Shown here: positions 23,921-42,278 of the stretch, in pieces
Numbering within the stretch: the stretch's first letter is position 1
Layout: each line of letters begins with the position of its first letter
NCBI GenBank assembly: GCA_015233625.1
Contig: JADFXK010000002.1
Span: forward strand, 1 to 51,481
Length of the DNA: 51,481 bases
Source: Deltaproteobacteria bacterium
Lineage (GTDB): Bacteria; Desulfobacterota; JADFXK01
Reading direction: 5' to 3'
The notes under the pieces: model-generated
Told to the model about the DNA's origin: nothing
Seen by the model: only the letters and a program-made list of their open reading frames with translations
Database searches by the model: none
Translations under genes and position numbers: made by a program

Positions 23921-24583
23921 GTGCCTCACATGTCCTTGCCGGATTCTGACGAACAAAGAAAATTTCACCCCTGGGGATTGGTCATTATGGGGTCGATTAT
24001 TTTGTCTTTGATCTGCGTCGGTCTGCTGTTATTCTTGCGTATGGAGGTGACCCCGTTGGTCGAAAAAATGGCTTCCCTGGACCAGCAGGCCATGCAACTG
24101 ACCCATGGGATGGACAGACAGATGGCTCAGCTCGGCCATGACCGGATTCTAATCGAAGAAGCCCGAAAGCTATTAGACAAAAGTCAGTCCGTTATTCAAG
24201 ATTACATCGTTGAGAACATCAAGAATAAAGGGATGGTTCGGCTGAACGACAAAGACATGCAAAGAATTGACGAAACCTTTCTTGTCGCTCAATTGACGGC
24301 CACCGCCCAGGGGACTGGAATCAAACTGTCAGGTCTGGTCATCAATTCCAGCCGGCTGGATTATCGGGCCGTTAAGTTTTTGGTAAGTGTCTCGTCCCAG
24401 TCAACCGAGATATATTTAGGCGAACTGGCGGCCGGCGGCACCGCGAATTTTGATGTCAGCCTGCCCAATTTATCCCCATCAACCACCAAGTCTGCCAGAG
24501 TGACCTACCTCACCGGAGGGGTTTATCTGGGTGGCGGCCAGGTAGTCAGTCGCAAGGGGGAACCGGGCGAAGCCGGTAGGTGA
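23921..24583 (+). CDS. hypothetical membrane-anchored protein
   Basis: 220-aa ORF. GGAG at 23906-23909 lies 11 nt upstream of the ATG at 23921. One N-terminal hydrophobic span (WGLVIMGSIILSLICVGLLLFL). Confidence 0.5.
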   Translation: MPHMSLPDSDEQRKFHPWGLVIMGSIILSLICVGLLLFLRMEVTPLVEKMASLDQQAMQLTHGMDRQMAQLGHDRILIEEARKLLDKSQSVIQDYIVENIKNKGMVRLNDKDMQRIDETFLVAQLTATAQGTGIKLSGLVINSSRLDYRAVKFLVSVSSQSTEIYLGELAAGGTANFDVSLPNLSPSTTKSARVTYLTGGVYLGGGQVVSRKGEPGEAGR

Positions 24584-25960: not shown

Positions 25961-27901
25961 ATGGCCCAAAATATTACTCAAAAAATACTCTCGGCCCATT
26001 TGGTCGAGGGGCAATTGGAAACCGGTCAGGAAATCGGCATAAAGATCGACCAGACCCTGACTCAAGACGCCACTGGCACCATGGCCTATCTGGAATTTGA
26101 AACTCTGGGCCTCGATCGGGTCAAGACCGAGGTATCGGTTAGTTACGTGGATCACAATCTTCTGCAGGCCGACTTCAAGAATGCCGATGACCATCGTTTC
26201 CTCCAATCCTGCGCGGCTCGGTTCGGGCTGTATTTCTCCCGCCCGGGGAATGGGATTTCCCATCAGGTCCATCTGGAGCGTTTCGGTGTCCCAGGAAAAA
26301 CCCTGTTGGGATCGGACAGCCACACCCCAGCCGGGGGCGGCTTGGGCATGCTGGCCATCGGGGCCGGCGGGATGGATGTGGCCCTGGCCATGGCCGGGTA
26401 TCCATTTTTCTTGAGCACGCCTGCCGTCCTGGGAGTGAATTTAACCGGTCGGCTACCCCGCTGGTCCTCGGCCAAGGATGTCATTTTGGAGATTCTGCGC
26501 CGACTGTCGGTCAAAGGTGGCGTGGGTAAGGTTTTAGAATATTTTGGGCCCGGCGTGGCCACCCTGTCCGTTACCGACCGGGCCGTGATCACCCACATGG
26601 GGGCGGAGCTGGGCGCCACATCGTCGGTTTTTCCATCGGATGAAGAGACCCGGCGATTCCTTACCGCCCAGTCGCGGCCGGGGGATTGGCGTCTGCTGGT
26701 GGCTGATCCAGGGGCTGGTTACGATGCGGTCATGGAAATTGACTTGACTCAGATCGAGCCCATGATCGCCTGCCCCTCGTCACCGGATAACGTCAAGAAA
26801 GTGTCAGAAGTGGCTGGGACTCCCGTAACCCAGGTGATTGTCGGTTCTTCCGGCAATTCTTCTTTCCGGGACCTGATGATGGTGGCCAAGATCATGGCCG
26901 GCCGACAGGTCCATCCGAATGTCAGTCTGGACATCAATCCCGGCAGCCGGCAGGCCTTGGAAAACGTGACTATCCACGACGGGTTGAAGGACCTGATCGG
27001 GTCCGGCGCCCGGATCCATCAATCGGGTTGCCTCGGCTGCATCGGTATGGGCCAGGCCCCGCCCACCGGAGGGGTATCGGTCCGGACCTTCCCCCGGAAC
27101 TTTCCCGGCCGGAGCGGGACAGTCAATGATTTAGTCTACTTATCCAGCCCGGAAACGGCGGCTGCGGCGGCGGTGTTTGGTAAGATCACTTCGCCCACGG
27201 AATTAGGCGATTACCCGGTAGTGACCGAGCCGGAAAAATTTATTATCAATAATAACCTGCTCATCCCGCCGACGGATAATAACCGGGAGGTGGAGATCGT
27301 CCGGGGACCCAATATCAAGCCGTTCCCGGTCTTCGAGGCGGTCCCGGATGAGTTGACCCTGACGGTGCTGACCAAGGTGGGCGACAATATCACCACTGAC
27401 CACATTATGCCGGCCGGGAGCGCCATCCTGCCTTTACGGAGCAATATTCCGGCCATCAGTGAGTTCGTCTTTCGGGATGCCGCCCCCGGATTTGCCGCCC
27501 GAGCCAAGGCCACGGGTGACGGTCTGGTTATTGGGGGCGAAAACTACGGCCAGGGGTCGTCGCGGGAACACGCGGCCATCGCCCCCCGGTATCTGGGGGT
27601 GCGGGCCAAGGTGGTCAAGAGCTTTGCCCGGATCCATCTGGCCAATTTGTGCAACATGGGAATCCTGCCCTTTACCTTTGCCGATCCAGGGCAGTACGAC
27701 CTGATCCAGGAAGGCGACAAAATTATTTTTCGGGGACTGCATGATTTTCTGAAGTCCGACGCGGTGGATTTCACGGCCAGGCTAGAAGGTAAGTCCGGAT
27801 CACAGCAGCTTTCGCTCCGCCTGGCCGCCACCGGCCGGGATCGGGGGATGCTGTTAGCCGGCGGCTTGCTAAACCTGGCCCGAACACAGGCCCGGAAATG
27901 A
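25961..27901 (+). CDS. aconitate hydratase (about 645-aa fused aconitase-family enzyme)
   Basis: IDQTLTQDATG, GSDSHT, GCLGCIGMG (Fe-S Cys ligands), GENYGQGSSREHAA (swivel domain). ATG at 25961 after AAGAGGAAA. Confidence 0.85.
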   Translation: MAQNITQKILSAHLVEGQLETGQEIGIKIDQTLTQDATGTMAYLEFETLGLDRVKTEVSVSYVDHNLLQADFKNADDHRFLQSCAARFGLYFSRPGNGISHQVHLERFGVPGKTLLGSDSHTPAGGGLGMLAIGAGGMDVALAMAGYPFFLSTPAVLGVNLTGRLPRWSSAKDVILEILRRLSVKGGVGKVLEYFGPGVATLSVTDRAVITHMGAELGATSSVFPSDEETRRFLTAQSRPGDWRLLVADPGAGYDAVMEIDLTQIEPMIACPSSPDNVKKVSEVAGTPVTQVIVGSSGNSSFRDLMMVAKIMAGRQVHPNVSLDINPGSRQALENVTIHDGLKDLIGSGARIHQSGCLGCIGMGQAPPTGGVSVRTFPRNFPGRSGTVNDLVYLSSPETAAAAAVFGKITSPTELGDYPVVTEPEKFIINNNLLIPPTDNNREVEIVRGPNIKPFPVFEAVPDELTLTVLTKVGDNITTDHIMPAGSAILPLRSNIPAISEFVFRDAAPGFAARAKATGDGLVIGGENYGQGSSREHAAIAPRYLGVRAKVVKSFARIHLANLCNMGILPFTFADPGQYDLIQEGDKIIFRGLHDFLKSDAVDFTARLEGKSGSQQLSLRLAATGRDRGMLLAGGLLNLARTQARK

Positions 27902-30072
27902 AAATTGTGACCCAGAATTTCAAGAATGGACAGGTCAGATTAATCGACGCGCCGCCGCCCCAGCTCCAACCGGGCGGTGTGCTCGTCCGGACCAGGGCCT
28001 CCCTGATCAGCGTGGGCACGGACCGGTCCATGATCCACCTGTCCCAAAAGACTTCCCTGCAAAAAGCCAAGGAACGGCCGGACCTGGTCAAGCGGGTCAT
28101 TGGCAAAATCAAGACGGACGGCCTGATGAACACTTATCGGGCCGTCAAGAATATCATGGAAGCCCCGCTGCCACTGGGTTACTCCCTGGCCGGGGAGGTG
28201 TCCGGCGTGGGGGCCGGGGCCGAGCTGTTTCAGGTGGGAGATCGGGTGGCTTGCGCGGGGGCCGGGTACGCCAATCATGCCGAGCAGGTCTGGGTCCCTA
28301 AGAATTTAGTCGTGCCGGCGCCCGACACCCTATCCTGGGATGAAGCCTCCTTCGTCACGCTGGGCGCGATCGCCGTGCACGGGGTGCGTCAGGCGGAGGT
28401 CCAATTCGGGGCCACCGTGGCCATTATCGGGTTGGGCCTGGTCGGGCAACTGGCCGCCCGGATCTGCCTGGCCGCTGGTTACCGGGTGGTGGGGGTGGAT
28501 ATTGATCCGGCCCGGAATGAACTAGCCCGATTGAGCGGGGTCCTGGCCGCGTCCGAACCCTCGGAAGAGGTGGTTCACCAGGTGCTAACCATTTCCCGGG
28601 GCATCGGGGCCGACGCCGTAATTGTCTGCGCCGCGGCTAAAGACAGCAGCGATACCTTAAAGTTGGCCGCGGACCTGGTCAAAGACCGGGGTCGGGTGGT
28701 CGTGGTGGGTGATGTGGGCATGGACATTCCCCGCCGCGAATACTACGCCAAGGAAATAGAAGTCCGCCTGTCCCGGTCGTACGGTCCGGGACGGTATGAT
28801 CCTGATTACGAAGAAAAGGGCCGGGGTTACCCGCCGGGATATGTCCGGTGGACCGAGACCGAGAATATGTCTTCCTTTCTGGACCTGGTGGCGGCCGGCC
28901 GCATCCGCCTGGATGATCTGATATCCCACAGCTTTCCCATTGATCAGGCCGAGGTGGCCTACGGGCTGGTCACCGGACAATCGGCCGAGCCGGTGTTAGG
29001 CGTAGTCCTGACCTATCCGGAGGAGCCGGATCTCCGCCCCAGACGAGACATCAACCTCGGCTCCCGCCCGGCCGCGGCGTCCCCAGGCCGGATCAACCTG
29101 GGTCTGATCGGGGCCGGGGCCTTTGCCAAGGGCGTCCTGCTCCCGGCTTTTATGGCCCAGCGTGAGGTTTCCCTGACCGGAGTGGCCGCGGCCAAAGGAT
29201 ATACGGCCCAGGTGGTGGCGGAAAGATATCAGGCCGAGTTCAGCGCGTCGGAAGCTGAGACCGTCCTGGCTGACCCTCAAATCACCGCGGTGGCCATCGC
29301 CACCCGGCACGACTCCCATGCCGCCCTGGCGATTCAGGCCTTAAACCGGGGCAAGCACGTCTTCCTGGAGAAACCGCTGTGTATTCATGAAGAGGAATTG
29401 TCGGCCGTGATGACCGCGGTGGCGGCTCACCCCGAACTGGTCCTGATGGTGGGATTCAATCGCCGGTTCAGCCCCCTGGCCGGGCAATTAAAGGCCCATT
29501 TCGCGCCCCGGTCGGCCCCCCTGGCCCTGATCTACCGGGTCAATGCCGGCCGCATTCCATTGGGCGACAAATCGAGCTGGGTCCATGATCCGGATCTGGG
29601 CGGTGGCCGGATTATCGGCGAGGTGTGCCATTTCGTGGATCTGCTGCTCTTTCTCACCGGGGCCCGGCCAGTCTGGGTTCAGGCTACCTCCGCAGCCCAG
29701 GGCCGGCAGACTCAGGCCACCAATGACGTGGTCACCTTGACCATCGCCTTGGATGACGGCTCCCTGGGCACCATCCACTATTTCGCCAATGGCAGCCGGG
29801 CCTATCCCAAGGAACGGGTGGAGGTCTTCGGCCAGGACAAGACGGCTGTCTTAGACAACTTCCGAACTCTGGAACTGGCTTCGGGCCAGGGCACGCGCAA
29901 GATCAAGAGAATGAATCAACAGAAAGGCTTTGAGGAAGAAGTCGCGGCTTTCATCCAGGGCATCCGGGAAAACACCTACCCCATCCCCTGGCCAGATCTC
30001 ATGGACACCACCCTGGTCACCTTCCGAGCGTTAGATTCGTTGAGGACGGGGTTACCGGTAAAGGTGGGGTGA
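27898..30072 (+). CDS. bi-domain oxidoreductase (N-terminal Zn-ADH/MDR-like, C-terminal Gfo/Idh/MocA-like)
   Basis: 724 aa. MDR-like GYSLAGEV...GDRVACAG...IIGLGLVGQL. Second Rossmann fold LGLIGAGAFAK plus EKPL and GFNRRF (Gfo/Idh/MocA). Start overlaps the aconitase stop (ATGA). Confidence 0.8.
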   Translation: MKIVTQNFKNGQVRLIDAPPPQLQPGGVLVRTRASLISVGTDRSMIHLSQKTSLQKAKERPDLVKRVIGKIKTDGLMNTYRAVKNIMEAPLPLGYSLAGEVSGVGAGAELFQVGDRVACAGAGYANHAEQVWVPKNLVVPAPDTLSWDEASFVTLGAIAVHGVRQAEVQFGATVAIIGLGLVGQLAARICLAAGYRVVGVDIDPARNELARLSGVLAASEPSEEVVHQVLTISRGIGADAVIVCAAAKDSSDTLKLAADLVKDRGRVVVVGDVGMDIPRREYYAKEIEVRLSRSYGPGRYDPDYEEKGRGYPPGYVRWTETENMSSFLDLVAAGRIRLDDLISHSFPIDQAEVAYGLVTGQSAEPVLGVVLTYPEEPDLRPRRDINLGSRPAAASPGRINLGLIGAGAFAKGVLLPAFMAQREVSLTGVAAAKGYTAQVVAERYQAEFSASEAETVLADPQITAVAIATRHDSHAALAIQALNRGKHVFLEKPLCIHEEELSAVMTAVAAHPELVLMVGFNRRFSPLAGQLKAHFAPRSAPLALIYRVNAGRIPLGDKSSWVHDPDLGGGRIIGEVCHFVDLLLFLTGARPVWVQATSAAQGRQTQATNDVVTLTIALDDGSLGTIHYFANGSRAYPKERVEVFGQDKTAVLDNFRTLELASGQGTRKIKRMNQQKGFEEEVAAFIQGIRENTYPIPWPDLMDTTLVTFRALDSLRTGLPVKVG

Positions 30073-30268
30073 GGGTCGGTTGGCGTCGGGCCATTGGACT
30101 ATCAGGCGCAAGAGGTTGCACCAGCCCTTTCTTTATTGTTGACTAATCTGAACACAACATATAGAATAAACAAGTAATAATACTGCGTCGGAAGTGTCCA
30201 GGAATCTATATCGGCGATGATTTACTCATTGGAATAGCACTTGGGGAAATCAAGCTTCGAGGTTTGCA

Positions 30269-31237
30269 TTGACAACAAACCATCATGACAGGTTTTTCAA
30301 GAAGATGTTTTCGGGCCAAGACCTGGCCAGGGATTTTTTCGCCAATTACTTGCCTGAGTCCGTTCTGGGTCAACTTGACCTAAGCACCCTTGCGACCACA
30401 ACAGATTCCTTTGTGGATGACCAATTAAGGGCTCATTTTTCGGACCTTGTTTACCGGGTGAACATAAAGCAGTCCCAGCCGGCATATGTCTGTATCTTGT
30501 TGGAGCATAAGAGCCATCAGGACAGGCGGGTGACGCTTCAACTCTTGAGATACATGATTCAAATGTGGGCCTATATCGATTCCCAACAGCCGACTTCGGA
30601 ATATTTACCCGTTATCATTCCATTGGTCTTCTATCATGGGACCACCACCTGGGAGGGATCAACCAGGTTTAAGTCATTATTTGACGCGACGGCTGAATTA
30701 AGACAATATCTTCCTGATTTCACTTATCTTCTTTTGGACTTATCAACTTTGGCGGATGAGGATATCAAAGGAGATGTCAAGACTAAAATTACCTTGCTCC
30801 TCCAGAAGCATATCCACGATCCTAAATTAGTTTCCCAATTAGCTGACATAGCTACTCTTTACCACGAAATACCACCAGGTCCCGATCAGATTGAATTTCT
30901 TAAAGTTGTTGCTCAGTATTTGATTTTCACCGATAAATTAACAAAGGAAGAGATAAAGGTCTTTTTGGACCGGGCTACTTCAGGTAAAGGAGATGAAATT
31001 ATGCCCACCGTCGTAGAAGAATTTATCGAAGAAGGATACCAGAAGGGCGCCTTGGTTAAGGCGCGGGAAGATATTCTTGATGGCATTGAAATTCGATTCG
31101 GCCAGGTTCCCAATGAAGTTACTGAATCTATAAGTGGGTTATCTGATACCATGGTATTGAAATCACTGCTTAGGCAGGCTTTTGTATCAAAGAATCTAGA
31201 TGAATTCATTCAGGCGCTCAGAAAATCCAAGAACTAA
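30269..31237 (+). CDS. Rpn-family recombination-promoting nuclease / putative transposase (YhgA-like, PD-(D/E)XK)
   Basis: N-terminal HDRFFKKMFS...ARDFFANYLP, DLVYRV...ILLEHKS (D...E.K core). 322 aa with a TTG start as tracked. Confidence 0.8.
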   Translation: MTTNHHDRFFKKMFSGQDLARDFFANYLPESVLGQLDLSTLATTTDSFVDDQLRAHFSDLVYRVNIKQSQPAYVCILLEHKSHQDRRVTLQLLRYMIQMWAYIDSQQPTSEYLPVIIPLVFYHGTTTWEGSTRFKSLFDATAELRQYLPDFTYLLLDLSTLADEDIKGDVKTKITLLLQKHIHDPKLVSQLADIATLYHEIPPGPDQIEFLKVVAQYLIFTDKLTKEEIKVFLDRATSGKGDEIMPTVVEEFIEEGYQKGALVKAREDILDGIEIRFGQVPNEVTESISGLSDTMVLKSLLRQAFVSKNLDEFIQALRKSKN

Positions 31238-31334
31238 CCATCATCCTCTGGCCCCGGCCCGGTTCCAGACAGCGGTGGTCGCCTTCCGATCCCTGGATTC
31301 GTTGAGGACGGGCTTACCGGATGAGCGTCTTTGA
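31238..31334 (+). pseudogene. displaced, diverged copy (B) of the oxidoreductase 3' end
   Basis: Reads ...FQTAVVAFRSLDSLRTGLPDERL* versus the native ...TTLVTFRALDSLRTGLPVKVG*. The core 31275-31320 matches 30014-30059 at about 38 of 46 nt by hand alignment. Starts right after the Rpn stop. Confidence 0.7.
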
Positions 31335-31358
31335 ATGAATGCTGGAGGAGCTGGAACC

Positions 31359-31538
31359 ATGCAAACATTAAAACAAGAGGCAATTGATGTGATTTCAAAA
31401 ATGTCTGAGCAAGTTGACATTGATGAAATCATGTATCGCCTATACGCCATCGACAAGATCAGAAAAGGCAGAGAAGCGGCTAATAGAGGAGACGTGACGT
31501 CCATTGAGGATTTGAAGAAAGAAATCGAAAAATGGTAA
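31359..31538 (+). CDS. small antitoxin-like protein (orphan; no partner toxin seen)
   Basis: GGAGGAG lies 9 nt upstream of the ATG at 31359. MQTLKQEAIDVISKMSEQVDIDEIMYRLYAIDKIRKGREAANRGDVTSIEDLKKEIEKW resembles the small addiction-module-type proteins common in cyanobacteria and deltaproteobacteria (recalled from memory only). Confidence 0.5.
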   Translation: MQTLKQEAIDVISKMSEQVDIDEIMYRLYAIDKIRKGREAANRGDVTSIEDLKKEIEKW

Positions 31539-31565
31539 CATCCCCGATTGACTCTGACCTCCGGT

Positions 31566-32156
31566 TTACCGTCTGGCCGGGGCGGCGGCGGGGAATTCGA
31601 CCTTGTCGTAGATTTCTTGCAGCGGCAGGCGGCAATCGATGGAATCCAGGGAAATTGTTCCGGTCAAATCATCAACCTCCGACATAACCCATTGTGTGCC
31701 CTGACGGACAAAGTGCTCCACCCGGGCTTGATCCTGGGCGATGATGACATACTCCTGGAGCGAAGGAAGGCGGCGGTATAGGGCAAACTTTCCACCTCGA
31801 TCGTAGGCTTCGGTAGAGTCGGACAATACTTCCATAATCACCGTGGGGTTAAGTAACGTGTCCAGGTGATCATCTTCAAAAAGAGGTTCCCCGCAGACAG
31901 CCGCCGCATCCGGGTAAGTGTACAAACCCGTGGCGCTGACCTTGACCCGCATGTCATTGACGTATATGGCGCACTCCCGCCCTCGAAACTGGGTGCTCAG
32001 TTCGCGGGCAATATTAACCGTGATTTGATTGTGTTGGCGGCCGGCTCCGGCCAGGGCAAAAATCTGACCGTTGAAATATTCACTCTTGTGTCCGGCGGCG
32101 CGCTCCAAGGCCAGGTATTCCTCCGGGGTGACTACTGATTGGGCTAATGGTTCCAT
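31566..32156 (-). CDS. Uma2-family (DUF820) restriction-endonuclease-like protein
   Basis: TPEEYLALERAAGHKSEYFNGQIFALAG...H..I..NI, then PD...EVLS core. 196 aa. Confidence 0.8.
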   Translation of the reverse strand: MEPLAQSVVTPEEYLALERAAGHKSEYFNGQIFALAGAGRQHNQITVNIARELSTQFRGRECAIYVNDMRVKVSATGLYTYPDAAAVCGEPLFEDDHLDTLLNPTVIMEVLSDSTEAYDRGGKFALYRRLPSLQEYVIIAQDQARVEHFVRQGTQWVMSEVDDLTGTISLDSIDCRLPLQEIYDKVEFPAAAPARR

Positions 32157-32274
32157 CGCTTCCCTTTCCTGGCAAACCGTGAATTTAGATTTGGCCCTTC
32201 TCTCAAGCTAACGCCTCGCCTCCCATACTGAAGCGAACGAGCTTTTGCAAAGCGCCCGTTCATCATGAGGAAGA

Positions 32275-32350
32275 AATCAATCCGCAGATGGCGCAGATTA
32301 ACGCAGATGAGCGTTTTGTATTTTCTAATCTATACAATCTGGGAATAAAA
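32275..32350 (+). mobile_element. short MITE-like element of the GCAGAT family
   Basis: Left end aatccgcagatggcgcagattaacgcagatgag. Degenerate right end gtattttctaatctatacaatctgggaat, compare 38131-38160. Confidence 0.5.
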
Positions 32351-32396
32351 TCAAGGGCGGACTCATCTAACTCAGGTTATCCCGGCCAAGACACTT

Positions 32397-32537
32397 GATG
32401 AATTCGTTCAGGCGCTCAGGAAATCCAAGAACTAATCTCCTCCAATCCCCGACCTCGGCTCCAGGGGACAGGGGTGGTCACCTTCCGAGTGTTAGATTCG
32501 TTGAGGACGGGGTTACCGGTCAAGGTGGGGTGAGGGT
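32397..32537 (+). pseudogene. Rpn 3'-end remnant (32397-32435) fused to displaced oxidoreductase 3' end, copy C (32436-32537)
   Basis: 32397-32435 matches 31199-31237 at 37 of 39 nt (DEFVQALRKSKN*). 32475-32537 matches 30014-30076 at 61 of 63 nt (TFRVLDSLRTGLPVKVG*). Confidence 0.8.
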
Positions 32538-32727
32538 TTGGCTGCCGATTTGTCATTTTGAATTTGAGGTGTTTTGGCAGGAAATAATCCTCAGGGGTGT
32601 GTATGTCAAGGTTCAGCAGCGTGCGAAGTTGCTGCCACGAATTTTCGAGATGGCGTCAGAAAATGCGCCCGATGTGGTCGCAGGTCCGCCCTCACCCCCA
32701 AAGTTGGACTACGAATATCCTAAATCA

Positions 32728-32958
32728 TCAATGTTTGCCGTTAAACTCATCATGCAACTTGGATAGCTCATCTATGCTGCTACGCAACATGGCTATGGCA
32801 CATTCAATACAATACCCATTCCACCCCAATCCTTCCCTAACCTCCAGAAGCAAATCTCCCTTTTCGATCGGATGTCTCTTGGGATCATGGTAACACTTTC
32901 GCTTCCTGCCAGCGCGAGCAGGCCTGCACGAAATCATCAGCTTTTTTAAAGGGGGCAA
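32728..32958 (-). CDS. small Cys/His protein, third gene of the helicase operon
   Basis: 76 aa with a TTG start at 32958. AAGGAG lies 8 nt upstream, inside the last helicase codons, and only 2 nt separate the helicase stop from this start. Possible metal ligands C22, H24, C50, C53 (KCYH...GYCIEC). Confidence 0.55.
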   Translation of the reverse strand: MPPLKKLMISCRPARAGRKRKCYHDPKRHPIEKGDLLLEVREGLGWNGYCIECAIAMLRSSIDELSKLHDEFNGKH

Positions 32959-32960
32959 GG

Positions 32961-35153
32961 TTAGGACTCCTTGTTGGTCTCTGTCTGAAGCTGGACCACA
33001 GCTGCGTCTACGGCCTCATCTATTTCATCATGAGCCTTCTTAAGCTCGTCAATTGAAAGAGAATTTCTATCTTTAGGGTCGATGTGAAGGCGACTATTGA
33101 CCTCAAGGTTCAGGAGGATGATTGCAGATCCAAGATTGTTCTTTGCCCTAATCCTGGGGAATCTTCGTGGAAGCTCAACTCCCACTGGAGAGAGCCCGAG
33201 CTCGGTCAGGACCTCCTTGGCTGCAGATCGCACGCGTTCATTTAAACGACGTTTTGCCTGTTGCCTTTCCTTTTGGTGGTGTATCGGTTGAGGTACAAAT
33301 GGTTTTACTGTTTCATATTGTGGTAAGGGCGAATTCAATTCTTTTTTGATCATATCACGAAGGCCGGGTGCATCAGGATCAACGCCACGAAGTTCAAGAG
33401 CTGTCATGACTTCATCAACTTGTGCTTCGCGATCCTCAAGTGTAAGATAGCTTTTTTGGGTTACACGCGAGATAGTTTCTTTCACTACTTCCATAGAGGG
33501 TCTAAACCTCCTGCGTTTGGTTTCGCCACCTTCCGCTGTGCCATCAAACTCCCGAGTACCGTTAGCAATTTCTTGATAGATCGCCTGATCATCTTCATCC
33601 AATTGCTTGAGTTCATCCCACCACCTGTCGACGTTTAGACCAACATGAGAGACTATATAGGCACGGTTATCTGGATTATTAGGGCTATCTTGCTTAATTA
33701 CACGCATAACCCGGCCTATAAACTGCACGTATGGTACAACATGCCGAAATGGTCTGAAAATTGCCGCCACACTCAGGTTGGGATAGTCCGCACCTTCCCC
33801 AAGCATCGCCACCTGGACGACAGCATCGATCCTTCCAGCCTCAAGTTGGAAGCGGACGTCCTCTTGATCTTCGTTTGTCATGTCGCTGTGCAGCACAGCA
33901 GCACTCCGGCCACGTTCTTCATATAGTGATCTTATCTGGTTAGCATGGTCAATTGAACAAGCAGCGGCAATGATTTGATGTTTGGCTTCTCCTCCCTCAC
34001 GCAATTCTAGCATGCTCTCGATAGATGCGTCGACGATATGCTCGTTACATTCCCGAGAGAGTGCAACACCCTTACTGTACCATGTTTCCTCGCGGAGTTT
34101 TATTACTTCCTCTATTGAGTGTTGTTGCTGTTGACCCCTGTAAGTAAAATAAAGTGCGGCTGGCTCCAATCTGCGAGAAGCAATATTTTTAATAAATCCG
34201 TCTGTTATGGCTCGTGCAACCGGATACCTATATATTCTATCCCCTTCTACCTTTTTGCCATCAGATCGAAGTGGAGTAGCAGTAAAACTTGCGACCCTTG
34301 CTTCTGAGAATTGTGACAGTATTGTTTGCCATGTGTTGGCTTCAGCATGGTGCCCCTCGTCCAGCAGAATCAGATCGAAATAGTCTGGAAAGAATTTTTC
34401 AAGCCAACTCTGTCTCTTCGACGTAAATTGCTGAATGTTGGTTACAAGGATATTTGCATGGTCGCAATCGTCCACATTTGCATTTGAGTCCAGCTCAGCC
34501 GTTTTGGGGTATGTACCATTGGTAAAAACGCCAGTCTTCTTCCAAAAGTTTTCTGGATTCGTGAAATCAAGATTTTTTACCAGGTTGCGCCTGATTTCGA
34601 GATTTGGAGCTACAACTAGAACACGGCCTCTCGAAACTCCAAAAGGAATAACAGACATTGCACCAGTCTTCCCGCAACCGACTGGTAATTGGATTAGAGC
34701 TCGGCGTTTGCCACCTTCAAAATATTTAAGAGCCGCTTCGTACGCTCCTTTTTGTGGGAGGCGAAGAGAGTCATTATCCAAGATATTGACTTTTGCCTTC
34801 ATGAACAGATTTAGATCGATATTGGAAGCCCCGATACGAGCCAGTTCATTGTTAACCCAATTACTTGTCTGAATGCGATCAGCCAGTTGAATCACCCTTT
34901 CATATACACGTCGGCTTTCCACCTTGCGCTGTGCGTCTACGAGGCAACTGGCCTGGCTGATTAAGTTGATGATAGCTTGCTCTTTTTTACCATCTGAAAG
35001 CAGCAGATGAGCTATTTGGGCTTCGTAGGATGCCACGGCTTCCGCGAGTTTGCGAATCTTCGTTTTGCTCGCTCTGCTACGCTTGAGGTTCTCTAAGTCT
35101 ACTAGCAGCGCGCTTTTCTCGGCCTTGAGTTCATTCAGGACTTGCGATGTCAT
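32961..35153 (-). CDS. SF2 helicase, type III restriction Res / COG1061-like, with N-terminal coiled coil and about 230-aa C-terminal extension
   Basis: Motif I LPVGCGKTG (about 34667-34681), motif II LLDEGHH (about 34347-34361), motif III SFTATP, motifs V/VI MLGEGADYP and QFIGRVMR. I prefer the ATG at 35153 (GAGGG 5 nt upstream) to the tracked 35297. Confidence 0.85.
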   Translation of the reverse strand: MTSQVLNELKAEKSALLVDLENLKRSRASKTKIRKLAEAVASYEAQIAHLLLSDGKKEQAIINLISQASCLVDAQRKVESRRVYERVIQLADRIQTSNWVNNELARIGASNIDLNLFMKAKVNILDNDSLRLPQKGAYEAALKYFEGGKRRALIQLPVGCGKTGAMSVIPFGVSRGRVLVVAPNLEIRRNLVKNLDFTNPENFWKKTGVFTNGTYPKTAELDSNANVDDCDHANILVTNIQQFTSKRQSWLEKFFPDYFDLILLDEGHHAEANTWQTILSQFSEARVASFTATPLRSDGKKVEGDRIYRYPVARAITDGFIKNIASRRLEPAALYFTYRGQQQQHSIEEVIKLREETWYSKGVALSRECNEHIVDASIESMLELREGGEAKHQIIAAACSIDHANQIRSLYEERGRSAAVLHSDMTNEDQEDVRFQLEAGRIDAVVQVAMLGEGADYPNLSVAAIFRPFRHVVPYVQFIGRVMRVIKQDSPNNPDNRAYIVSHVGLNVDRWWDELKQLDEDDQAIYQEIANGTREFDGTAEGGETKRRRFRPSMEVVKETISRVTQKSYLTLEDREAQVDEVMTALELRGVDPDAPGLRDMIKKELNSPLPQYETVKPFVPQPIHHQKERQQAKRRLNERVRSAAKEVLTELGLSPVGVELPRRFPRIRAKNNLGSAIILLNLEVNSRLHIDPKDRNSLSIDELKKAHDEIDEAVDAAVVQLQTETNKES

Positions 35154-35685
35154 TGCTACCCTCATAGTACCACAAGTATGATGCCGCCTCTGAATAGTTC
35201 GCGACGCAGACATAACCAGCTTTTCCAAAAGGATTTGCCTGCAACTGCTTGGCCTTATCATCACGCAAAGAAGAGAGACTGCCGTTGACTTGTCCACTTA
35301 CTTCAAGCAGGAGTTCTTTGTCACCGAGCCAATAGTCAGCCCGCTCGCCTCTTCGGGCTACTTCAGTTATTTCAAGATGCGGAAGTTCTGCGACCAGGAT
35401 GCATGCGAGCCCTAGGGTGGCAAATTCAGTCAATGTAGGGCCTTGATATGTATTGATGCACAACTTGTAGTCTTCTTCGAGACCACTCCATCGTAGCATT
35501 ACTTCGGACTCTTGGCATTTAGCTTCTGCGTTCATGCTTCTGTAATTGATGCTAACCTCGGTTGATCCATCACAGTAAGATTCTCTTCCTTGAAGCCTAC
35601 TGACTAGAGGAGAACGCCAATCCTGCGCCCGAATCTTTGGATGAAGTTCCTGGATTCTCTCAACATCATAAAGAGTTTTGGCCAT
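35131..35685 (-). CDS. hypothetical protein, first gene of the helicase operon (family unknown)
   Basis: 184 aa. AGGAG lies 7 nt upstream of the ATG at 35685. Its 3' end overlaps the helicase start by 23 nt. The segment TEFATLGLACILV...RADYWLGDKELLLEVSGQ has the spacing of an E...D...E-x-K nuclease core, but with Ser in the Lys position. Confidence 0.6.
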   Translation of the reverse strand: MAKTLYDVERIQELHPKIRAQDWRSPLVSRLQGRESYCDGSTEVSINYRSMNAEAKCQESEVMLRWSGLEEDYKLCINTYQGPTLTEFATLGLACILVAELPHLEITEVARRGERADYWLGDKELLLEVSGQVNGSLSSLRDDKAKQLQANPFGKAGYVCVANYSEAASYLWYYEGSNDIASPE

Positions 35686-36257
35686 ATTCCGTTCTCCTAT
35701 GGTCCATTTGATTCAATCAACATCTATTCTCCATACAAACACATCGATTGTATTTGCAGTCTAACGGCAGGCCTAAGTGGCACAAAACCACGCGGCCAAT
35801 TATGCGTTAGTGGATAAGCCATCTTTCAGCGTTTTTCCCCTACCTATCTTTGATGTCTGTCTCAGAGTGTTTTGTCACGGCCCTTTAACCTACCGGCACA
35901 ATAAGTCTCAACGAAGACCCCAAAGTCCATCAACGAAGCTACGAATACCGGCCGGTCCACGATTGGAACATCGGCCCAGATCACCACGCTTCTTATGCTT
36001 CTCGTGCGAGACCCACGGCAACGCCGGTGGCCCCATCAATTTCTACGGTCACGATTGCTCTGTGTATACTCATTTTCGCAGAAATCGAAAAAGTAGCTGC
36101 TGATTATTTCTAATGCACTATACCTTGCTCTATCCTGAATCGCAAGTATTTTTTGCAATTGCCCCCATAAATCAGCATGACACTATTTGTTTGGTGAACT
36201 AACATGACGTAATAGTTTACTAAAGTATAGTCATTTGACCGCCACACCCGCCTCAGC

Positions 36258-37157
36258 TTAATCCTCCTGATCCCCCTGTATCAGCTTTCTGGTGATGTCC
36301 ATGAATGCCTTTAAGGATGGAGACAGCCACTTTTCCTGATACCGGATCATCAAAATGGCCACCTCGATCCGGCCTTCCACCCAGGGCAGAGCGAGCAGCC
36401 TGCATTGGGCCAGGTCATCGGCCACCGCCACTTCCGGCAGGATGGTCAGGCCCACTCCGGCCATGACGCTCCGTTTCATCGCTTCCACGCTGTAAAACTC
36501 CAGGCTGTGGTCATGGGCTACCCCCGCCTGGTCCAGCATCTTCTCAAATATCCGCCTGTAACTACAATCCACCCTCGAAAAAAGAAAGGTCTTGCCGGCC
36601 AGGTCCGCTGTCTGGACGACTGGTTTCAAGGCCAATGGGCAGTCCGGGCCGGCGACCAGGACCAGGTGCTCGCAGCCCAGCGATTCCACCACCAGATCCG
36701 CGGCCTGGATGGACTCGGTCAGCAGGAAGGCCAGATCGGTCAGACCCTTGCGGAGGTCATTGGCCAGGGCCTCGTGGGTGCAGGTGATGAAATTTAGTTG
36801 CACGTTGGGAAAACGGGAGTGGAATTCCCTGATTACCGGGGGCAATCGGTGCACGCCGAAGCTCTCCGGAATTCTTATGGTTAAGGAGCCTTGAGGCTGA
36901 CTTGACCCTGACATTTCCGCCAGGGTTTCATCCACCAGGTTGACTATCTTCTCCGCATGATTCAACAACCGCAGGCCAGCTTCGGTCAGGATCACCCGCC
37001 GGCCCAGCCGATCAAACAGCGGCACGCCCAGCTCTTCCTCCAGGGATTGAATCTGCGCCGAAATACTGGACTGGGCATAGTGCAACTGCTCCGCCGCCCG
37101 GTTGAAGTTCAATAGCCGGGCCACTGTCCTGAATGTCCTGAGCTGTCGGATGTCCAT
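36258..37157 (-). CDS. LysR-family transcriptional regulator
   Basis: MDIRQLRTFRTVARLLNFNRAAEQLHYAQSSISAQIQSLEEELG (wHTH) plus a substrate-binding domain. 299 aa. Confidence 0.9.
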   Translation of the reverse strand: MDIRQLRTFRTVARLLNFNRAAEQLHYAQSSISAQIQSLEEELGVPLFDRLGRRVILTEAGLRLLNHAEKIVNLVDETLAEMSGSSQPQGSLTIRIPESFGVHRLPPVIREFHSRFPNVQLNFITCTHEALANDLRKGLTDLAFLLTESIQAADLVVESLGCEHLVLVAGPDCPLALKPVVQTADLAGKTFLFSRVDCSYRRIFEKMLDQAGVAHDHSLEFYSVEAMKRSVMAGVGLTILPEVAVADDLAQCRLLALPWVEGRIEVAILMIRYQEKWLSPSLKAFMDITRKLIQGDQED

Positions 37158-37555
37158 TTATTCTCCTTCGATCATTGATTACGATTGACATGGTCAAAAC
37201 TAATCGTTTGACACGATATATAATATTTAGTTATTATACGTACCGATAGTACGGACTGCAACCTAAAATTGAAGGAGATGGAAAGATGAACAGACCAGGG
37301 ATTGAATCTGGGCCGAAATACCAGGTTGGACATAGGGCAACTGCTCCGCCGCTCGGTTGAAGTTCAATAGCCGGGCCACTGTCCTGAATGTCCTGAGTTG
37401 TCGGATGTCAGGTTCTTCTCCTTCGATCACTATTTTCGATTGACCCGATCAGAACTAATCGTTTGACACGATAGTTGATGTCCAGTTATTATATATACAG
37501 ATAGAGCGCAGTGCAACCTAAAACTAAAGGAGATTGAAAAATGAACAGAACAGAG
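37083..37555 (+). repeat. tandem duplication, period 255 bp, of lysR 5' end + divergent promoter + first codons of the downstream gene
   Basis: caactgctccgccgc... starts at 37083 and again at 37338. atgaacaga... occurs at 37286 and again at 37541. The lysR-derived part is near-identical and the intergenic part is more diverged. In copy 2 the lysR ATG is lost. Confidence 0.8.
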
Positions 37556-37978
37556 AAGACCATCCAATTGTTACAAATAGGGTCGAATTGCTCGCAAGCC
37601 ATATTGGCTGTCTTTGGTGAGCCACACGGGGTGGACGTTGACCTGGCTGACCGACTGGGGCGGCCGCTGGGCGCCGGACTGGGGCGGATGGGGCAGGTGT
37701 GCGGGGCGGTATCCAGTGCCATTGTGGTCCTGGGCCTGGCGCAGAAAAATGGGCTGGATGAAGCGGAAGCCAGAAACGACCTGGCCCGGACGGCCCAAGA
37801 ATTGGCGGCCCGGTTTAAGGGTTTGCACGGAACCATTATGTGCAAGGATCTGCTGGGCGCGGATATCAGCACTCAGTCCGGCATGGCCAGAATCAAGGAA
37901 GAGAAGCTCGTGCCCAAATTATGTCCGGTTTTTGTCCGGGATGCGGCGGACATCCTGTCGGAATTTCTACCGGAATAG
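37541..37978 (+). CDS. C_GCAxxG_C_C family redox-active protein
   Basis: NCSQAIL, CGAVSSA, MCKDLLG and CPVFVRDA give the family Cys pattern. 145 aa. AAGGAG upstream. Confidence 0.8.
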   Translation: MNRTEKTIQLLQIGSNCSQAILAVFGEPHGVDVDLADRLGRPLGAGLGRMGQVCGAVSSAIVVLGLAQKNGLDEAEARNDLARTAQELAARFKGLHGTIMCKDLLGADISTQSGMARIKEEKLVPKLCPVFVRDAADILSEFLPE

Positions 37979-37981
37979 ATG

Positions 37982-38160
37982 AATCCGCAGATGGTACAGA
38001 TGAACGCAGATAAAAGCGACCCACATACGCATGCGATCGATTGAACTGCCTCAAGGCAACACGCTCTAACCGGCCACCCTTGCTGATCTTTTGCCGGTCG
38101 AGGCTTGAATTCAATCGTGTGGTATTTTCTAATCTGTGCAAATCGGTTCAATCTGCGGAT
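37982..38160 (+). mobile_element. MITE-like element of the GCAGAT family (about 179 bp, terminal inverted repeats)
   Basis: Left aatccgcagatggtacagatgaacgcagat, right atctgtgcaaatcggttcaatctgcggat. The internal segment ccggtcgaggcttgaattcaa is shared, in inverted orientation, with 38521-38657. Confidence 0.6.
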
Positions 38161-38169
38161 AAGACATGG

Positions 38170-38478
38170 CTAGCCCCAACCGTTGTCGTCTGGAAAGATA
38201 TTGGAGTACCTGACGAATTGGTGCGGTGCGGCTATCATGTCTTTTACTGTCTCGCGCCATTTCAGATAATGGGCGGTCTCCTTATGCCGGGCCGGATCAT
38301 CGGGTGTGCGATAAACCTCCACCAGGACGAAACGATGGGGGGCATCGGCCTGCTGGATGACATCAAATCGGGCTATCCCCGGTTCCAGCACGCTGTGGCC
38401 GGCGTTTTCCTTGGTCGCCGCCTTAAACGCCTCAATCTGATCGTCCTTGACCTGGACAAAAACGTGAACGATAAGCAT
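38170..38478 (-). CDS. antibiotic-biosynthesis-monooxygenase (ABM) family protein
   Basis: Start at 38478 (GAGGAGAG upstream). [22 protein letters not shown]...[22 protein letters not shown] fits the ABM ferredoxin-like fold. The tracked 5' extension (to 38610) reads into the repeat. Confidence 0.65.
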
Positions 38479-38520
38479 GATCATCTCTCCTCTATTCGTG
38501 GTCGGCGCGGGCCATGATTT

Positions 38521-38657
38521 AATCCGCAGATTGCGCCGATTTGCGCAGATTAAAAGACAAAATGCTTGAATCCAAGCCTCGGTCGGCCAAAATTCATCAA
38601 CTGATCGCATAGTCTGTGGGTCTCTTCCATCTGCGTCAATCTAAGTAATCTGCGGAT
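38521..38657 (-). mobile_element. MITE-like element of the GCAGAT family (about 137 bp), inverted relative to 37982-38160
   Basis: Ends aatccgcagattgcgccgatttgcgcagat and atctgcgtcaatctaagtaatctgcggat. Confidence 0.6.
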
Positions 38658-38709
38658 GTATTTTTGTCTCCCGATTAATAAAACTCATCGGATTCAGGTT
38701 AGCTCAGGT

Positions 38710-39519
38710 TCACTTCTTCTCGTGCGGAGACGGTTGGCCATAAATGGTCAGCATCAACTCCGGCCCAACCAGGCTGAAAACCGGCTCCTTTCCGGAATGG
38801 GCCAAACTTTCGGACAGAATCTTTCTAACGCCTTCACCTCGGGCTTCGATATATGACGCCCCAGTCTCTTTGTTCTTCATTTTCGACATGAAGGACACCA
38901 AGAGCTGGTTTCTGGTATATTGTCGGTAGGGTAACGTTTCCAGGGTGATGGTATTGGGTAAACCGCCCGGACTCATCAGCTCCAGGCGGTCGTCATACAT
39001 GAATAGCCTGATTTTGGATCCGGAAATAGAGTAATCCCGGTGCGCCACAGCATTCACCAGGGCTTCATAAACGGGCGAAAGAGAATATTGGGGATAATCC
39101 TTGCGCCCTATCTTCTTTGTCGCCGGCTTGAGCATAAATCGTTTGACAAAGGCTAAAGCCCCGTCAATCTGGTGATCGACCGGTCCCTCAATTTTTTCCT
39201 CATGAATCAGGTCATCCGAATCAGGATAGAACCCCCGATAGACCACTGACTGGATATAGGCTGAAGGCAAATGACGCTGCGGATTAAGGCCGAAGCTCAG
39301 CAGACCGGCCACAGTAGGCCTGATCAGCCCCTCCTCATCCTTAGTCATCGCCCTGGTGTTTATTAATAGATCCCTTAATGGAAGAGGGAAGGGGCCGAAG
39401 TAATTTCTTATGGCCGTGTCGTTCAAGTCGCTTTCGACAGCCGTCGGTACGGCCATTTCGTCGAAAGAATCTTTCCCGGCGGCTAGCTGACTCCTGATTT
39501 CTTCCGTGGTCTGGAACAT
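38710..39519 (-). CDS. COG2865-type ATP-binding / putative DNA-binding regulator lacking the usual N-terminal AlbA_2 (Schlafen-like) domain
   Basis: NAVAHRDYSISGSKIRLFMYDDRLELMSPGGLP (HATPase_c_4-like) with a C-terminal wHTH-like part. Only 269 aa, and only 119 nt of upstream space. Confidence 0.6.
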   Translation of the reverse strand: MFQTTEEIRSQLAAGKDSFDEMAVPTAVESDLNDTAIRNYFGPFPLPLRDLLINTRAMTKDEEGLIRPTVAGLLSFGLNPQRHLPSAYIQSVVYRGFYPDSDDLIHEEKIEGPVDHQIDGALAFVKRFMLKPATKKIGRKDYPQYSLSPVYEALVNAVAHRDYSISGSKIRLFMYDDRLELMSPGGLPNTITLETLPYRQYTRNQLLVSFMSKMKNKETGASYIEARGEGVRKILSESLAHSGKEPVFSLVGPELMLTIYGQPSPHEKK

Positions 39520-39628
39520 AGTTGATCAAACCCCGTAACAACATAATCATATCATCTGGATGGTGTCTGTTATCCAACCTGGTCGAGCGGGAGACTTGAT
39601 GGACATTGATCAGACGCAGGCCACAACG
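39504..39628 (-). pseudogene. displaced, diverged copy of the adenylate cyclase 3' end plus its downstream spacer
   Basis: The minus strand reads ...LINVHQVSRSTRLDNRHH versus the cyclase C-terminus ...QINVYQVSRLTRLENRH*. About 48 of 62 nt are identical to 42331-42392 at a constant offset of 2770. Homology continues past the stop (TTATGTYGT, TAYGTTCCA). Confidence 0.7.
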
Positions 39629-39638
39629 CCTGGGCCAG

Positions 39639-40544
39639 TCAGGACCGCCGGCTAAGAGCTTCGGCCATGACCTCCCAGAAGGCTCCGGAAAGGGACAGGT
39701 CGAGATGGAAAACCGGAATTTTGGCGGCGATGGCCAATGCCTGGTCCAAACGCCGGAGGCGGCGAAGTCGGAGCTGGTCGGCATTTAGGCCCCGGTCTCT
39801 AATATTGGACTGCTGGGCGATGGCGGCGGCTATTTCCGCGGCGGCCGGAGCGCGCAACATGGCTTCGGCCCGATCCACACCGGACTGGTACAAACAAAAT
39901 ATGGCGCCGAGCGGTAGAGATTGGGCCACATCCCAGCGTCCACCGGGGCCGCCGTCGAAAAAGTCGCTGAAGGTCGGCCAGGGATGGACGCGAAAGCCTT
40001 GCTCGGCGTCGGGCACCACCAGGGCGGCGTCGTCGGACCAGGAACGCCAGGGGGCCGGCAAGCGGCGACTGGCTGTGCTTTTGCCGGTACCACCGGGCCC
40101 GGCCAACAAAATACCCTGTCCCTGCCATTCCGCCAGGGCCGCATGTAGGAGCCAGACCCCTTGAGGTTCCAGGTGGCTGATCAGGCCGGCGGCGGCAAAG
40201 AGCATTTGGATGTAGACATCGGCACCGCCGTGGGGAAGGCGAACCACCATCTCTTCATCTGCTACGGGTGAGGGGTCGTGCGGTCCGCAAAGAAATATAC
40301 GGCGAGTCCCGTTGGCCGCGGCGCCACGCTGCAAGGGTTGCCCGACCGCCTCTGCCAGGGTGGCCACGACCGGGCCGGTAGAGGCTCCTGCAATCATATT
40401 CGCTGCCTGGCATCCGGAAAGAGTAAGCGTAAAACCAAGGTCCATAACTTCATCCAGATTCAGGGAAACGGCTCCGCCGAACATCGCGCGTAGGAAATAG
40501 CGAGCGAGTCGGTCAGGGTTGTTTCTTCGATCTTTTTTATTCAA
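39639..40544 (-). CDS. HprK-related P-loop kinase-like protein (HPr-rel-A / ScmC-like)
   Basis: 301 aa. GILLAGPGGTGKSTASRRL P-loop in a C-terminal HPr-kinase-like context. Gene neighbours are PqqD and the nucleotidyltransferase. Confidence 0.6.
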   Translation of the reverse strand: MNKKDRRNNPDRLARYFLRAMFGGAVSLNLDEVMDLGFTLTLSGCQAANMIAGASTGPVVATLAEAVGQPLQRGAAANGTRRIFLCGPHDPSPVADEEMVVRLPHGGADVYIQMLFAAAGLISHLEPQGVWLLHAALAEWQGQGILLAGPGGTGKSTASRRLPAPWRSWSDDAALVVPDAEQGFRVHPWPTFSDFFDGGPGGRWDVAQSLPLGAIFCLYQSGVDRAEAMLRAPAAAEIAAAIAQQSNIRDRGLNADQLRLRRLRRLDQALAIAAKIPVFHLDLSLSGAFWEVMAEALSRRS

Positions 40545-40620
40545 GGCGTCATTTTCGTTAGCTATAAAGTTGTATCGGCTTTGGTCCTGAAACCGGCAAA
40601 AGGCAGGATCAGGCCTGCGG

Positions 40621-40905: not shown

Positions 40906-40915
40906 ATTGGCTCCG

Positions 40916-42121: not shown

Positions 42122-42278
42122 GATCGTCTCCTTTTAGGCCGGTGTTGGGAACCGGAGTCAGCAACTCGGTCGGGGTCAACTCCAACATCATGGGTTCCCG
42201 CAAGGTCGGGAACATACTGGTGCCGCGATAGACCATCCACGGAAAGGCTAAGTCGACAGGGGAGGTGAAGGGGTGCAT
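42114..42278 (-). CDS. unlisted 54-aa ORF with signal-peptidase-I-like Ser box (precursor peptide candidate or S26 peptidase remnant)
   Basis: My own translation: MHPFTSPVDLAFPWMVYRGTSMFPTLREPMMLELTPTELLTPVPNTGLKGDDHA*. GGAG lies 9 nt upstream. The stop overlaps the next ATG (ATGCCTGA). GTSMFPTL matches the GxSMxPTL box of S26 peptidases. Confidence 0.45.
   Translation of the reverse strand: MHPFTSPVDLAFPWMVYRGTSMFPTLREPMMLELTPTELLTPVPNTGLKGDDHA

Follow-up and report, generated by a model that had tools for sequence, protein, structure and literature searches.

How does the 3' end of one gene come to stand three times on the same strand, with unrelated genes between the copies? This question is raised by a bi-domain oxidoreductase gene (ox; 27898-30072, + strand) on an NCBI contig of a metagenome-assembled genome (MAG), labelled 'Deltaproteobacteria bacterium', whose 51,481 nucleotides (nt) are referred to here as the window. 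The gene is intact and encodes 724 amino acids with ADH_zinc_N and Gfo/Idh/MocA domains (Pfam). It is followed by a gene for an Rpn/YhgA-type PD-(D/E)XK nuclease (30269-31237, + strand). The original prediction had explained the repeated ends by two nested insertions and had linked their mode of entry to the Rpn gene. Our analysis indicates that insertion which regenerates the gene tail without a recombinase is real, that the nesting was mis-assigned and that the link to Rpn is not supported. We lean towards reading the repeated gene ends as scars of recombinase-independent insertion or replacement, together with copy-correction, at a hypervariable, defence-type hotspot of low guanine-plus-cytosine (GC) content (~30.1-36.0 kb), with ox at its left edge.

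The ox 3' end was found in three same-strand copies, at 30014-30076 (tail 1, the end of the gene itself), 31276-31320 (tail 2) and 32475-32537 (tail 3), as had been predicted, and shuffled sequences gave none. Alignment of tails 1 and 3 reproduced the expected 61/63 matches (96.8%), while tail 2 agrees with 30014-30058 at 39 of 45 positions before its homology breaks off after TTACCGG at 31320. A 25-mer of the ox tail, with up to three mismatches allowed, hit exactly three sites in the window and none in 100 shuffles. The 3' end of the Rpn gene is repeated as well. Its copy a, at the end of the intact gene (31190-31237), and its copy b, an orphan end with the Rpn body missing upstream (32388-32435, + strand), share 43 of 48 positions; within the last 39 nt the agreement is 37/39, as stated before, and shuffles again gave nothing. 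Rpn tail and ox tail together form a single direct repeat of 131-135 nt (31190-31320 versus 32388-32519, 81%).

The 37-39 nt separating the Rpn stop from each ox tail consist of degenerate ox sequence derived from the PIPWP codons. In L089, one of three relatives described below (L083, L088 and L089), this spacer matches ox at 18 of 19 positions, which was equalled by 0/2000 shuffles, and spacer a of the window matches at 11 of 12 (equalled by 36/2000). Because the spacer is derived from ox, the displaced ox fragment is ~105 nt long and starts directly after the Rpn stop. Fragment a occupies 31238-31320 (+ strand; spacer and tail 2, ending after TTACCGG) and fragment b 32436-32541 (+ strand; spacer and the full tail 3, ending 4 nt past the stop); the corresponding part of the gene, the first repeat copy, is its last ~105 nt (29976-30080, + strand). 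The ox similarity of the displaced copies ends at the ox stop plus ~4 nt. A duplication continuing 3' of the stop codon was rejected, as the comparison was non-significant.

The ox tail belongs to the oxidoreductase family itself, for homologues from many phyla, with 45-52% identity, end in ...TFRILDSLRTGxPVxV. Capture of a dispersed repeat as the origin of the tail was rejected, since the tail is family-native and present in only three copies in the window. Its exact pattern had no matches in metagenome and viral contigs. Also rejected was a derivation of the Rpn C-terminus (DEFIQALRKSKN, then stop) from the segment FIQGIRENTY of ox. The same SLxEFxxxL ending is found in paralogues at unrelated loci and in distant homologues, and at the nucleotide level the match is only 9/10, equalled by 94 of 2000 shuffles.

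Relatives of the locus were reached through homologue and cluster searches. The 90% cluster of the ox protein has four members, which give four syntenic haplotypes of the ox locus including that of the window, at ~90% nucleotide identity; ox orthologues at ~90% are present in L083, L088 and L089, and the last two are near-identical to each other. In the window, ox with tail 1 is followed by the Rpn promoter and gene, the spacer and truncated tail 2, a small open reading frame (ORF), a Uma2-family gene on the opposite strand, a repeat element, Rpn tail b, the second spacer, tail 3 and helicase cargo. In L083, ox with its tail and the promoter are followed by an Rpn gene that directly abuts the Uma2 gene, then by the repeat element and a protein kinase gene; the displaced tail, the small ORF and the second Rpn tail are missing. 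In L088 and L089, ox with its tail is followed by the first 110 nt of the intergenic region, a deletion corresponding to window 30187-30837, the last 400 nt of Rpn, the spacer, a full displaced ox tail and DUF4238 cargo. From the Rpn end through the displaced tail, window 30838-31319 is contiguous with and orthologous to the L088/L089 sequence (86.5%).

Because L088 and L089 keep the Rpn 3' end, the degenerate ox fragment and the full ox tail, the Rpn cassette bracketed by a ~105-nt duplication of the ox end is real and ancestral; judged from these alignments, it predates the split of the sampled genomes. The first of the two predicted insertions thus stands as far as the bracketed Rpn segment is concerned. 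The empty site that should accompany it was not found: an Rpn gene or an Rpn remnant is present in all four haplotypes, so no relative with an empty ox site is available among them. The closest ox homologue beyond the cluster is 54% identical. A scan of GTDB genomes with the ox protein returned only relatives of <=52%, and 0/80 of these loci had a second tail or an Rpn gene within 10 kb.

The second predicted event, a 1.16-kb unit entering exactly at the Rpn stop, is not supported: in L083, Rpn abuts Uma2 without duplicated tails. A better account would be an insertion in the displaced tail after 31320 that left the 131-nt repeat, or a join of two strain haplotypes. The L083 arrangement would most simply be a window-like locus after loss of the equivalent of 31244-31552 and of the right side. 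The segment concerned contains an ORF of 67 amino acids (31335-31538, + strand), which in L083 is missing along with tail 2; it has no family match in Pfam, NCBIfam or PADLOC, and its earlier label 'antitoxin-like' is unverified. It further contains the Uma2-family PD-(D/E)XK gene (31566-32156, - strand; PF05685, E = 9e-33; PADLOC candidate PDC-S03) and a non-coding stretch that is also present in L083 (32157-32387, strand unassigned). This stretch holds the repeat element of ~40 nt (32269-32309), further copies of which lie at 37972-38011, 38521-38550, 38628-38663 and 48609-48649.

Tail 2 had been considered a foreign oxidoreductase fragment brought in with this unit. It has diagnostic displaced-type bases (TCCCTGGAT) in common with the displaced tail of L088 and L089, to which it belongs within the 86.5% alignment, and it is, on this comparison, the orthologue of the old displaced tail and no foreign import. 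The ox genes of the orthologues end in ...PVRIG and stop, whereas all full-length displaced tails and the window ox gene end in ...PVKVG and stop. Tail 1 of the window matches the displaced tail of L089 at 38/39 positions and the ox tail of L089 at only 34/39. Compared with L089, identity falls to 80% in the final 100 nt of ox in the window, against a mean of ~90%; this is the lowest value for any 100-nt stretch of the gene, tied with 28998-29097. From the KVG ending, these match counts and the 80% end it follows that tails 1 and 3 were homogenised in the window lineage; the comparison shows that gene conversion overwrote the window ox end with the displaced type. Because of this homogenisation tail 3 looks 'native' and tail 2 'foreign'.

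Rpn tails a and b and that of L089 stand at equal distances from one another (3, 3 and 5 of 48 positions differ), so that copy b is as old as the split of these genomes. Copy 32388-32541 continues into different cargo, and the ox locus therefore seems to combine the haplotypes of two strains in one mosaic, as far as the compared sequences tell. A mosaic of this kind could be produced by an assembler that joined strain variants at repeats, and both the origin of the contig from a MAG and the resemblance of the b copy to another strain's haplotype would fit such a chimera. However, L088 and L089, which were assembled independently, have the same order of Rpn end and displaced ox tail, and the Rpn-Uma2 adjacency recurs in L083. 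Moreover, the a and b copies are ~81% identical with longest identical runs of ~15-25 nt, below assembler k-mers, the junctions share no long k-mer, and at 32379-32388 the junction is not part of a repeat. A chimera is therefore highly improbable.

The cargo 3' of ox differs in three lineages. It comprises a helicase set in the window, DUF4238 and 204-amino acid genes in L088 and L089, and a protein kinase gene in L083. In the window, the variable cargo after tail 3 (32542-36007, - strand) consists of a 76-amino acid ORF, a ResIII/Helicase_C protein (32961-35297) and a 184-amino acid ORF. Cargo proteins match candidate defence families in PADLOC (PDC-S03, DUF4238-Pers, PD-T4-6/mad6 and mREase_IV/PbeA-like), and restriction-type helicases are present as well. 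With three different candidate-defence cargo sets at one syntenic position, the interval between ox and ~36.0 kb is a defence-type hotspot. Core genes have a GC content of ~62%, whereas the profile is down at 40-50% over ~30.1-36.2 kb, and since it stays low to ~36.2 kb, the low-GC island reaches well beyond the third tail copy. One syntenic relative carries a MamI gene.

A second insertion in the window has the same anatomy and contains no Rpn gene. Self-comparison of the window revealed a 60-nt direct repeat (39563-39622 versus 42333-42392) that corresponds to the 3' end of a guanylate-cyclase/TPR gene (42330-44090, - strand). The copy attached to the gene (3' 60-64 nt, 42333-42392) is the functional one. 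The other (39563-39622, - strand) is displaced and decaying, with a mutated stop codon, and is contiguous with the original downstream flank. Between them lies an insert of 2.7 kb (39623-42329, - strand) with a 301-amino acid P-loop-like ORF and an NTP_transf_5 gene, neither Rpn nor a recombinase being found in it. This insert is missing in L089, which represents the empty site: there the cyclase gene is directly followed by an AlbA_2 gene, 64 nt of the cyclase tail match both window copies, and L089 10284-10444 matches window 39457-39622. The insert is thus placed at the cyclase stop, with an orthologue-like tail on the gene and the stranded tail still on the old flank. Since the 2.7-kb insert has it, the tail-duplicating anatomy arises without Rpn, and this insert is the strongest evidence against the Rpn link.

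The cyclase case also bears on another possible origin of the ox repeats, namely local tandem duplication, perhaps repeated, of a segment that begins at ox codon ~690 and reaches the Rpn stop; most of the additional copies would afterwards have been lost through deletion or replaced by cargo. Tandem direct duplications have been held responsible for rpn arrays elsewhere (PMC10400941), two tandem Rpn arrays (L092 and L114) turned up in our own survey, and the orphan Rpn 3' end at 32388-32435 is of the kind such a process would leave. Tandem duplication did occur nearby: the 5' end of a LysR gene, comprising the upstream region and the first ~39 codons, is present as two copies of 262 nt (85%; 37040-37301 and 37295-37556), the upstream one having lost its ATG, and further local instability is thereby demonstrated. 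At the ox locus, however, deletions would have to end exactly at the ox stop plus 4 nt in two lineages with different downstream cargo, and the a and b copies have diverged as much as orthologues. The cyclase case is an insertion and no duplication, given that its two copies enclose foreign DNA and that an empty site exists. We regard an origin of the ox repeats by tandem duplication as unlikely.

In the absence of an integrase, gene-end repeats might still be att-type sites. The Pfam scan, which covered most ORFs of >=150 amino acids at 20.2-50.9 kb, detected no integrase, resolvase or DDE transposase among the ORFs scanned; ORFs without any family were those at 23921-24583, 35131-35685, 39639-40544 and 44245-45423. 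No integrase was present in the gene tables of L083, L088 and L089, or within ~10 kb in any of the four haplotypes. Neither terminal inverted repeats nor a short target duplication were found at the segment boundaries. The predicted lack of tyrosine and serine recombinases, DDE transposases and such terminal features was thus borne out for the ORFs and boundaries scanned. Four tail regions folded no better than shuffles (z-scores -0.29 to +1.69), which led us to reject the tails as att-type or attC-type hairpins, and Rfam had no matches at the tails.

Islands that integrate at gene or tRNA 3' ends, including cis-mobilisable remnants without an integrase and accretion arrays, do resemble the ox locus: the 3' end is regenerated, same-strand copies bound the insert, segments stand in tandem and cargo differs between close relatives. 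If the ox tail were an attB-type site whose integrase was lost or acted in trans, decayed elements without an integrase would have accumulated in tandem to give the series tail 1, Rpn, tail 2, cargo, tail 3, and it would be understandable that three different sequences start within ~4 nt of the stop. Unlike such islands, the ox locus lacks an integrase in all four haplotypes and shows no conserved core or hairpin structure. Its repeats vary in length and boundary with the event (~105, 131 and 60-64 nt, the last at the cyclase gene), and the second takes in the end of a cargo gene, Rpn. The segments are only 1.1-2.7 kb long, the cyclase event would require a second, different site specificity, and the tail pattern is without matches in viral or metagenome contigs. 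Site-specific integration is accordingly a distinctly unlikely explanation. Integron cassettes, too, are single-gene units with a proximal promoter that stand side by side with repeats at their ends; unlike them, the locus has no IntI and no attC-type hairpin, and its repeats are pieces of a neighbouring gene. As for insertion sequences or DDE transposons, there is no transposase, the segment ends carry no inverted repeats and the duplications are 60-131 nt long and variable.

The cassette gene itself is a clear member of its family. It encodes 322 amino acids at a GC content of ~40-44% and passes the curated thresholds of PF04754 (Transposase_31 domain; E = 4.2e-59, 200 bits, threshold 21) and TIGR01784 (67.8 bits, threshold 52.1). 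In an alignment of 26 Rpn sequences, the PD-(D/E)XK residues D59, E79 and K81 are invariant; they are equivalent to D63, E82 and Q84/K of RpnA, for which mutated catalytic residues are listed (PMC5350276). The intergenic region between ox and Rpn (30081-30268, + strand) contains a terminator-like hairpin (30114-30126) and a candidate sigma-70-like promoter for Rpn (30139-30167, TTGACT-17-TAGAAT), and from ~30108 on it is common to the Rpn paralogue loci L082 and L084. Within the gene lies a putative RpnS-like ORF (31002-31237, MPTVVEEF...), whose predicted internal start, M245, is preceded by AAGGAG; close Rpn paralogues all share the I-M-P-T motif at residue 245 without variation. L088 and L089 have lost the nuclease part (30187-30837) and keep the promoter and exactly the 82-amino acid ORF that starts at this conserved methionine. 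The remnant (L089 5472-5883, L088 3545-3956, equivalent to window 30838-31237) looks like an RpnS-type antitoxin that may have been kept after loss of the toxin.

RecA-independent recombination is stimulated by RpnA, a nuclease without sequence specificity, and template switching has been proposed as its route (Kingston et al. 2017, PMC5350276). According to Zhong et al. (2023, PMC10400941), rpn genes are horizontally transferred, are not transposases, sit in defence islands and are of the toxin-antitoxin type; rpn regions have variable ends, no terminal inverted repeats and no target duplications. The window cassette resembles these mobile rpn genes (PMC10400941, PMC5350276) in being a single-gene unit with its own promoter, in its several paralogues and variable left ends, in its lack of terminal inverted repeats, in its defence-island setting and in the conserved internal methionine, which may start a small C-terminal protein. 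Unlike the rpn genes of the published comparison, the cassette at ox and those at a few unrelated metagenome loci stand between direct repeats of 33-135 nt.

These brackets raise the possibility of an insertion mode linked to Rpn, in which the nuclease, in cis or in trans, would make widely staggered breaks or cause template switching and thereby insert promoter-plus-gene cassettes with target duplications of 30-135 bp, regenerating genes when it acts at gene ends. Besides the ~105-nt duplication at ox and the template-switch model already proposed for RpnA, the abundance of the gene also speaks for such a mode, as at least 5 Rpn paralogue loci exist in this genome lineage, with paralogues 75-85% identical in the sister MAGs. 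Yet the four further loci (in TetR/RND, ParB/methylase, DUF932 and YcaO/Crp contexts), that is four of the five in these MAGs, have no flanking direct repeats; two of the four are at the same place in both MAGs. Cassette homology among the paralogues ends on the right at the stop codon and on the left at about -160 nt (with the promoter) or -55 nt. The variable left ends and the lack of repeats at the paralogues match the published statement on the ends of rpn regions (PMC10400941). No Rpn relatives were found in the viral contigs scanned.

We also surveyed repeats around Rpn genes elsewhere, by same-strand similarity between the 400 nt 3' of the stop and the 1500 nt 5' of the start. The set comprised 24 loci from metagenomes whose flanks were long enough, 10 from plasmids and 8 from the MAG clade including the window; the tandem Rpn arrays L092 and L114 were removed. 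Clean boundaries were seen for the repeats flanking L103 (33 nt, 100%) and L108 (39 nt, 95%), and L120 has a repeat of 28 nt with a third partial copy. L095, L096, L098 and L107, all from metagenome Ga0247727, have repeats of 49-135 nt; they belong to a single paralogous family in which the repeat is a sensor-gene 5' end. A Leptospira plasmid locus (L147) has an intergenic repeat of ~200 nt. The Ga0247727 organism has many Rpn genes (also L106 and L117), each of which is followed by a ribosome-binding site, a start codon and a signal-peptide-like 5' end of a sensor-type family (MKPILIAFRQWPNSWRKMLLLGL...), and in four loci this whole stretch also precedes the gene.

The controls were negative and in that respect favour an Rpn link: random 960-nt pseudo-genes gave 0/357 at E < 1e-4, and inverted orientation gave none at E < 0.001 (best 0.002), although these controls were unmatched for repeat-rich genomes or recently acquired genes. 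On the other hand, the Ga0247727 loci, being paralogous, amount to a single case, the metagenome cases come without empty sites, and only 1-2 of the 10 plasmid loci have a repeat, the Leptospira one being a long intergenic repeat rather than a target duplication. Direct repeats of 33-135 nt flanking some unrelated Rpn genes are a lead, not a finding. With the repeat-free paralogues, the published comparison and, above all, the Rpn-free cyclase insert, the predicted Rpn-linked mode did not find support, and we consider it unlikely as an explanation of the locus. There is a slim chance that recombinase-free insertion promoted by Rpn in cis or in trans, through widely staggered breaks or primer-template switching, leaves long target duplications of variable length (~30-135 bp) as its mark; such insertion would place promoter-plus-gene cassettes and other cargo at gene ends and restore the gene. 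Our best reading of Rpn here is that of toxin/antitoxin-type defence cargo. At most it would supply breaks without sequence specificity, and in this reading it is no site-specific recombinase acting on these junctions.

How, then, could the ends have been repeated? Returning to insertion without a dedicated recombinase, we infer the joining mechanism and the order of events as follows. In a first step, before the four genomes split, a cassette of ~1.15 kb with promoter and Rpn came to lie between the ox stop and the displaced ~105-nt ox 3' fragment. The likeliest route would be homology-facilitated illegitimate recombination or a template switch. Incoming DNA would pair inside ox and supply a complete ox end and the cassette, and its far end would join illegitimately at a point ~105 nt short of the resident stop codon. 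The gene would stay whole and the resident tail be stranded, while events that truncated the gene would be removed by selection. In a second step, in the lineage of the window and L083, the displaced tail would have received, after 31320, the segment with the small ORF, Uma2 and the repeat element. On its right side this segment borders, in the window, on the second, equally old copy of Rpn tail, spacer and ox tail (32388-32541). This structure is read directly from the alignments, and its place in the order of events is the probable one. In a third step, which the comparison of the tails shows, conversion between tails 1 and 3 gave the real ox gene its ...PVKVG ending.

The orthologue-like tail attached to the cyclase gene and the distinct RIG-type and KVG-type ox tails are consistent with insertion anchored by homology. 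Illegitimate or template-switch insertion shares with the locus the lack of a dedicated recombinase, the anchoring of one side in a conserved gene with an illegitimate join on the other, and mosaics between strains; it explains both the variable repeat lengths and the Rpn-free example. Classic laboratory events of homology-facilitated illegitimate recombination mostly delete recipient DNA. The window differs in that it keeps a duplicate of 60-131 nt of the end of the anchor gene.

Several observations weigh against this explanation. As no Rpn-less relative was found, the first step is drawn from anatomy only. Neither the donor DNA nor microhomologies at the illegitimate joins are identifiable. 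Three different sequences begin within ~4 nt of an ox-type stop (after tail 1, tail 3 and the displaced tail of L089), which looks more site-specific than random joining, though selection and conversion could mimic it. The displaced copies are unevenly kept, the 63-nt core being good and the spacer badly decayed, which needs repeated short conversion tracts. The direct repeats that flank single Rpn genes in some unrelated lineages hint at an Rpn link. Finally, the claim that homology-facilitated illegitimate recombination leaves such duplications comes from the transformation literature, and our literature search on duplications of this kind found nothing directly useful.

Some further features of the window and its relatives were recorded. 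The greater part of the region with the LysR and C_GCAxxG_C_C genes (~36.4-38.2 kb in the window) is missing from L089. Homology to the LysR 3' end (window 36039-36393 versus L089 8194-8526) is kept in L089, where it is fused into a 'Fe-ADH' fragment ORF, with an indel at the gene end. An inverted repeat of 103 nt (77%; 38080-38181 and 38500-38600) brackets an ABM-domain gene region. The HATPase_c_4 gene at 38710-39519 encodes 269 amino acids in the window and 386 amino acids with an AlbA_2 domain in L089 (9201-10361); the window is without ~410 nt (L089 9874-10283). The sole tRNA gene of the window is that for tRNA-Ser (48793-48878). A 34-nt inverted match (94%) connects 11323-11356 with 48981-49014, one arm being ~100 nt from the tRNA-Ser gene.

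Repeats of gene ends at island borders are already known; what is new here is that they occur without any recombinase found. Defence genes such as rpn move without a recombinase of their own, and published comparisons gave no insertion footprint. The ox hotspot offers a dated series of haplotypes, with an intact Rpn, an Rpn cut to its antitoxin-like end, an Rpn abutting Uma2 and a mosaic of two strains, and the neighbouring cyclase insert offers a clean, Rpn-free pair of empty and filled sites. Insertions can evidently land in the last 60-130 nt of a gene and leave it intact, and the stranded gene ends persist and later overwrite the real gene end by conversion. Annotators could recognise the edges of hotspots by orphan fragments of gene tails. 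For work on Rpn, the direct repeats flanking some rpn genes are a concrete, testable signature, and insertion promoted by Rpn, if true, would give this family of 'putative transposases' a real, previously unseen insertion signature.

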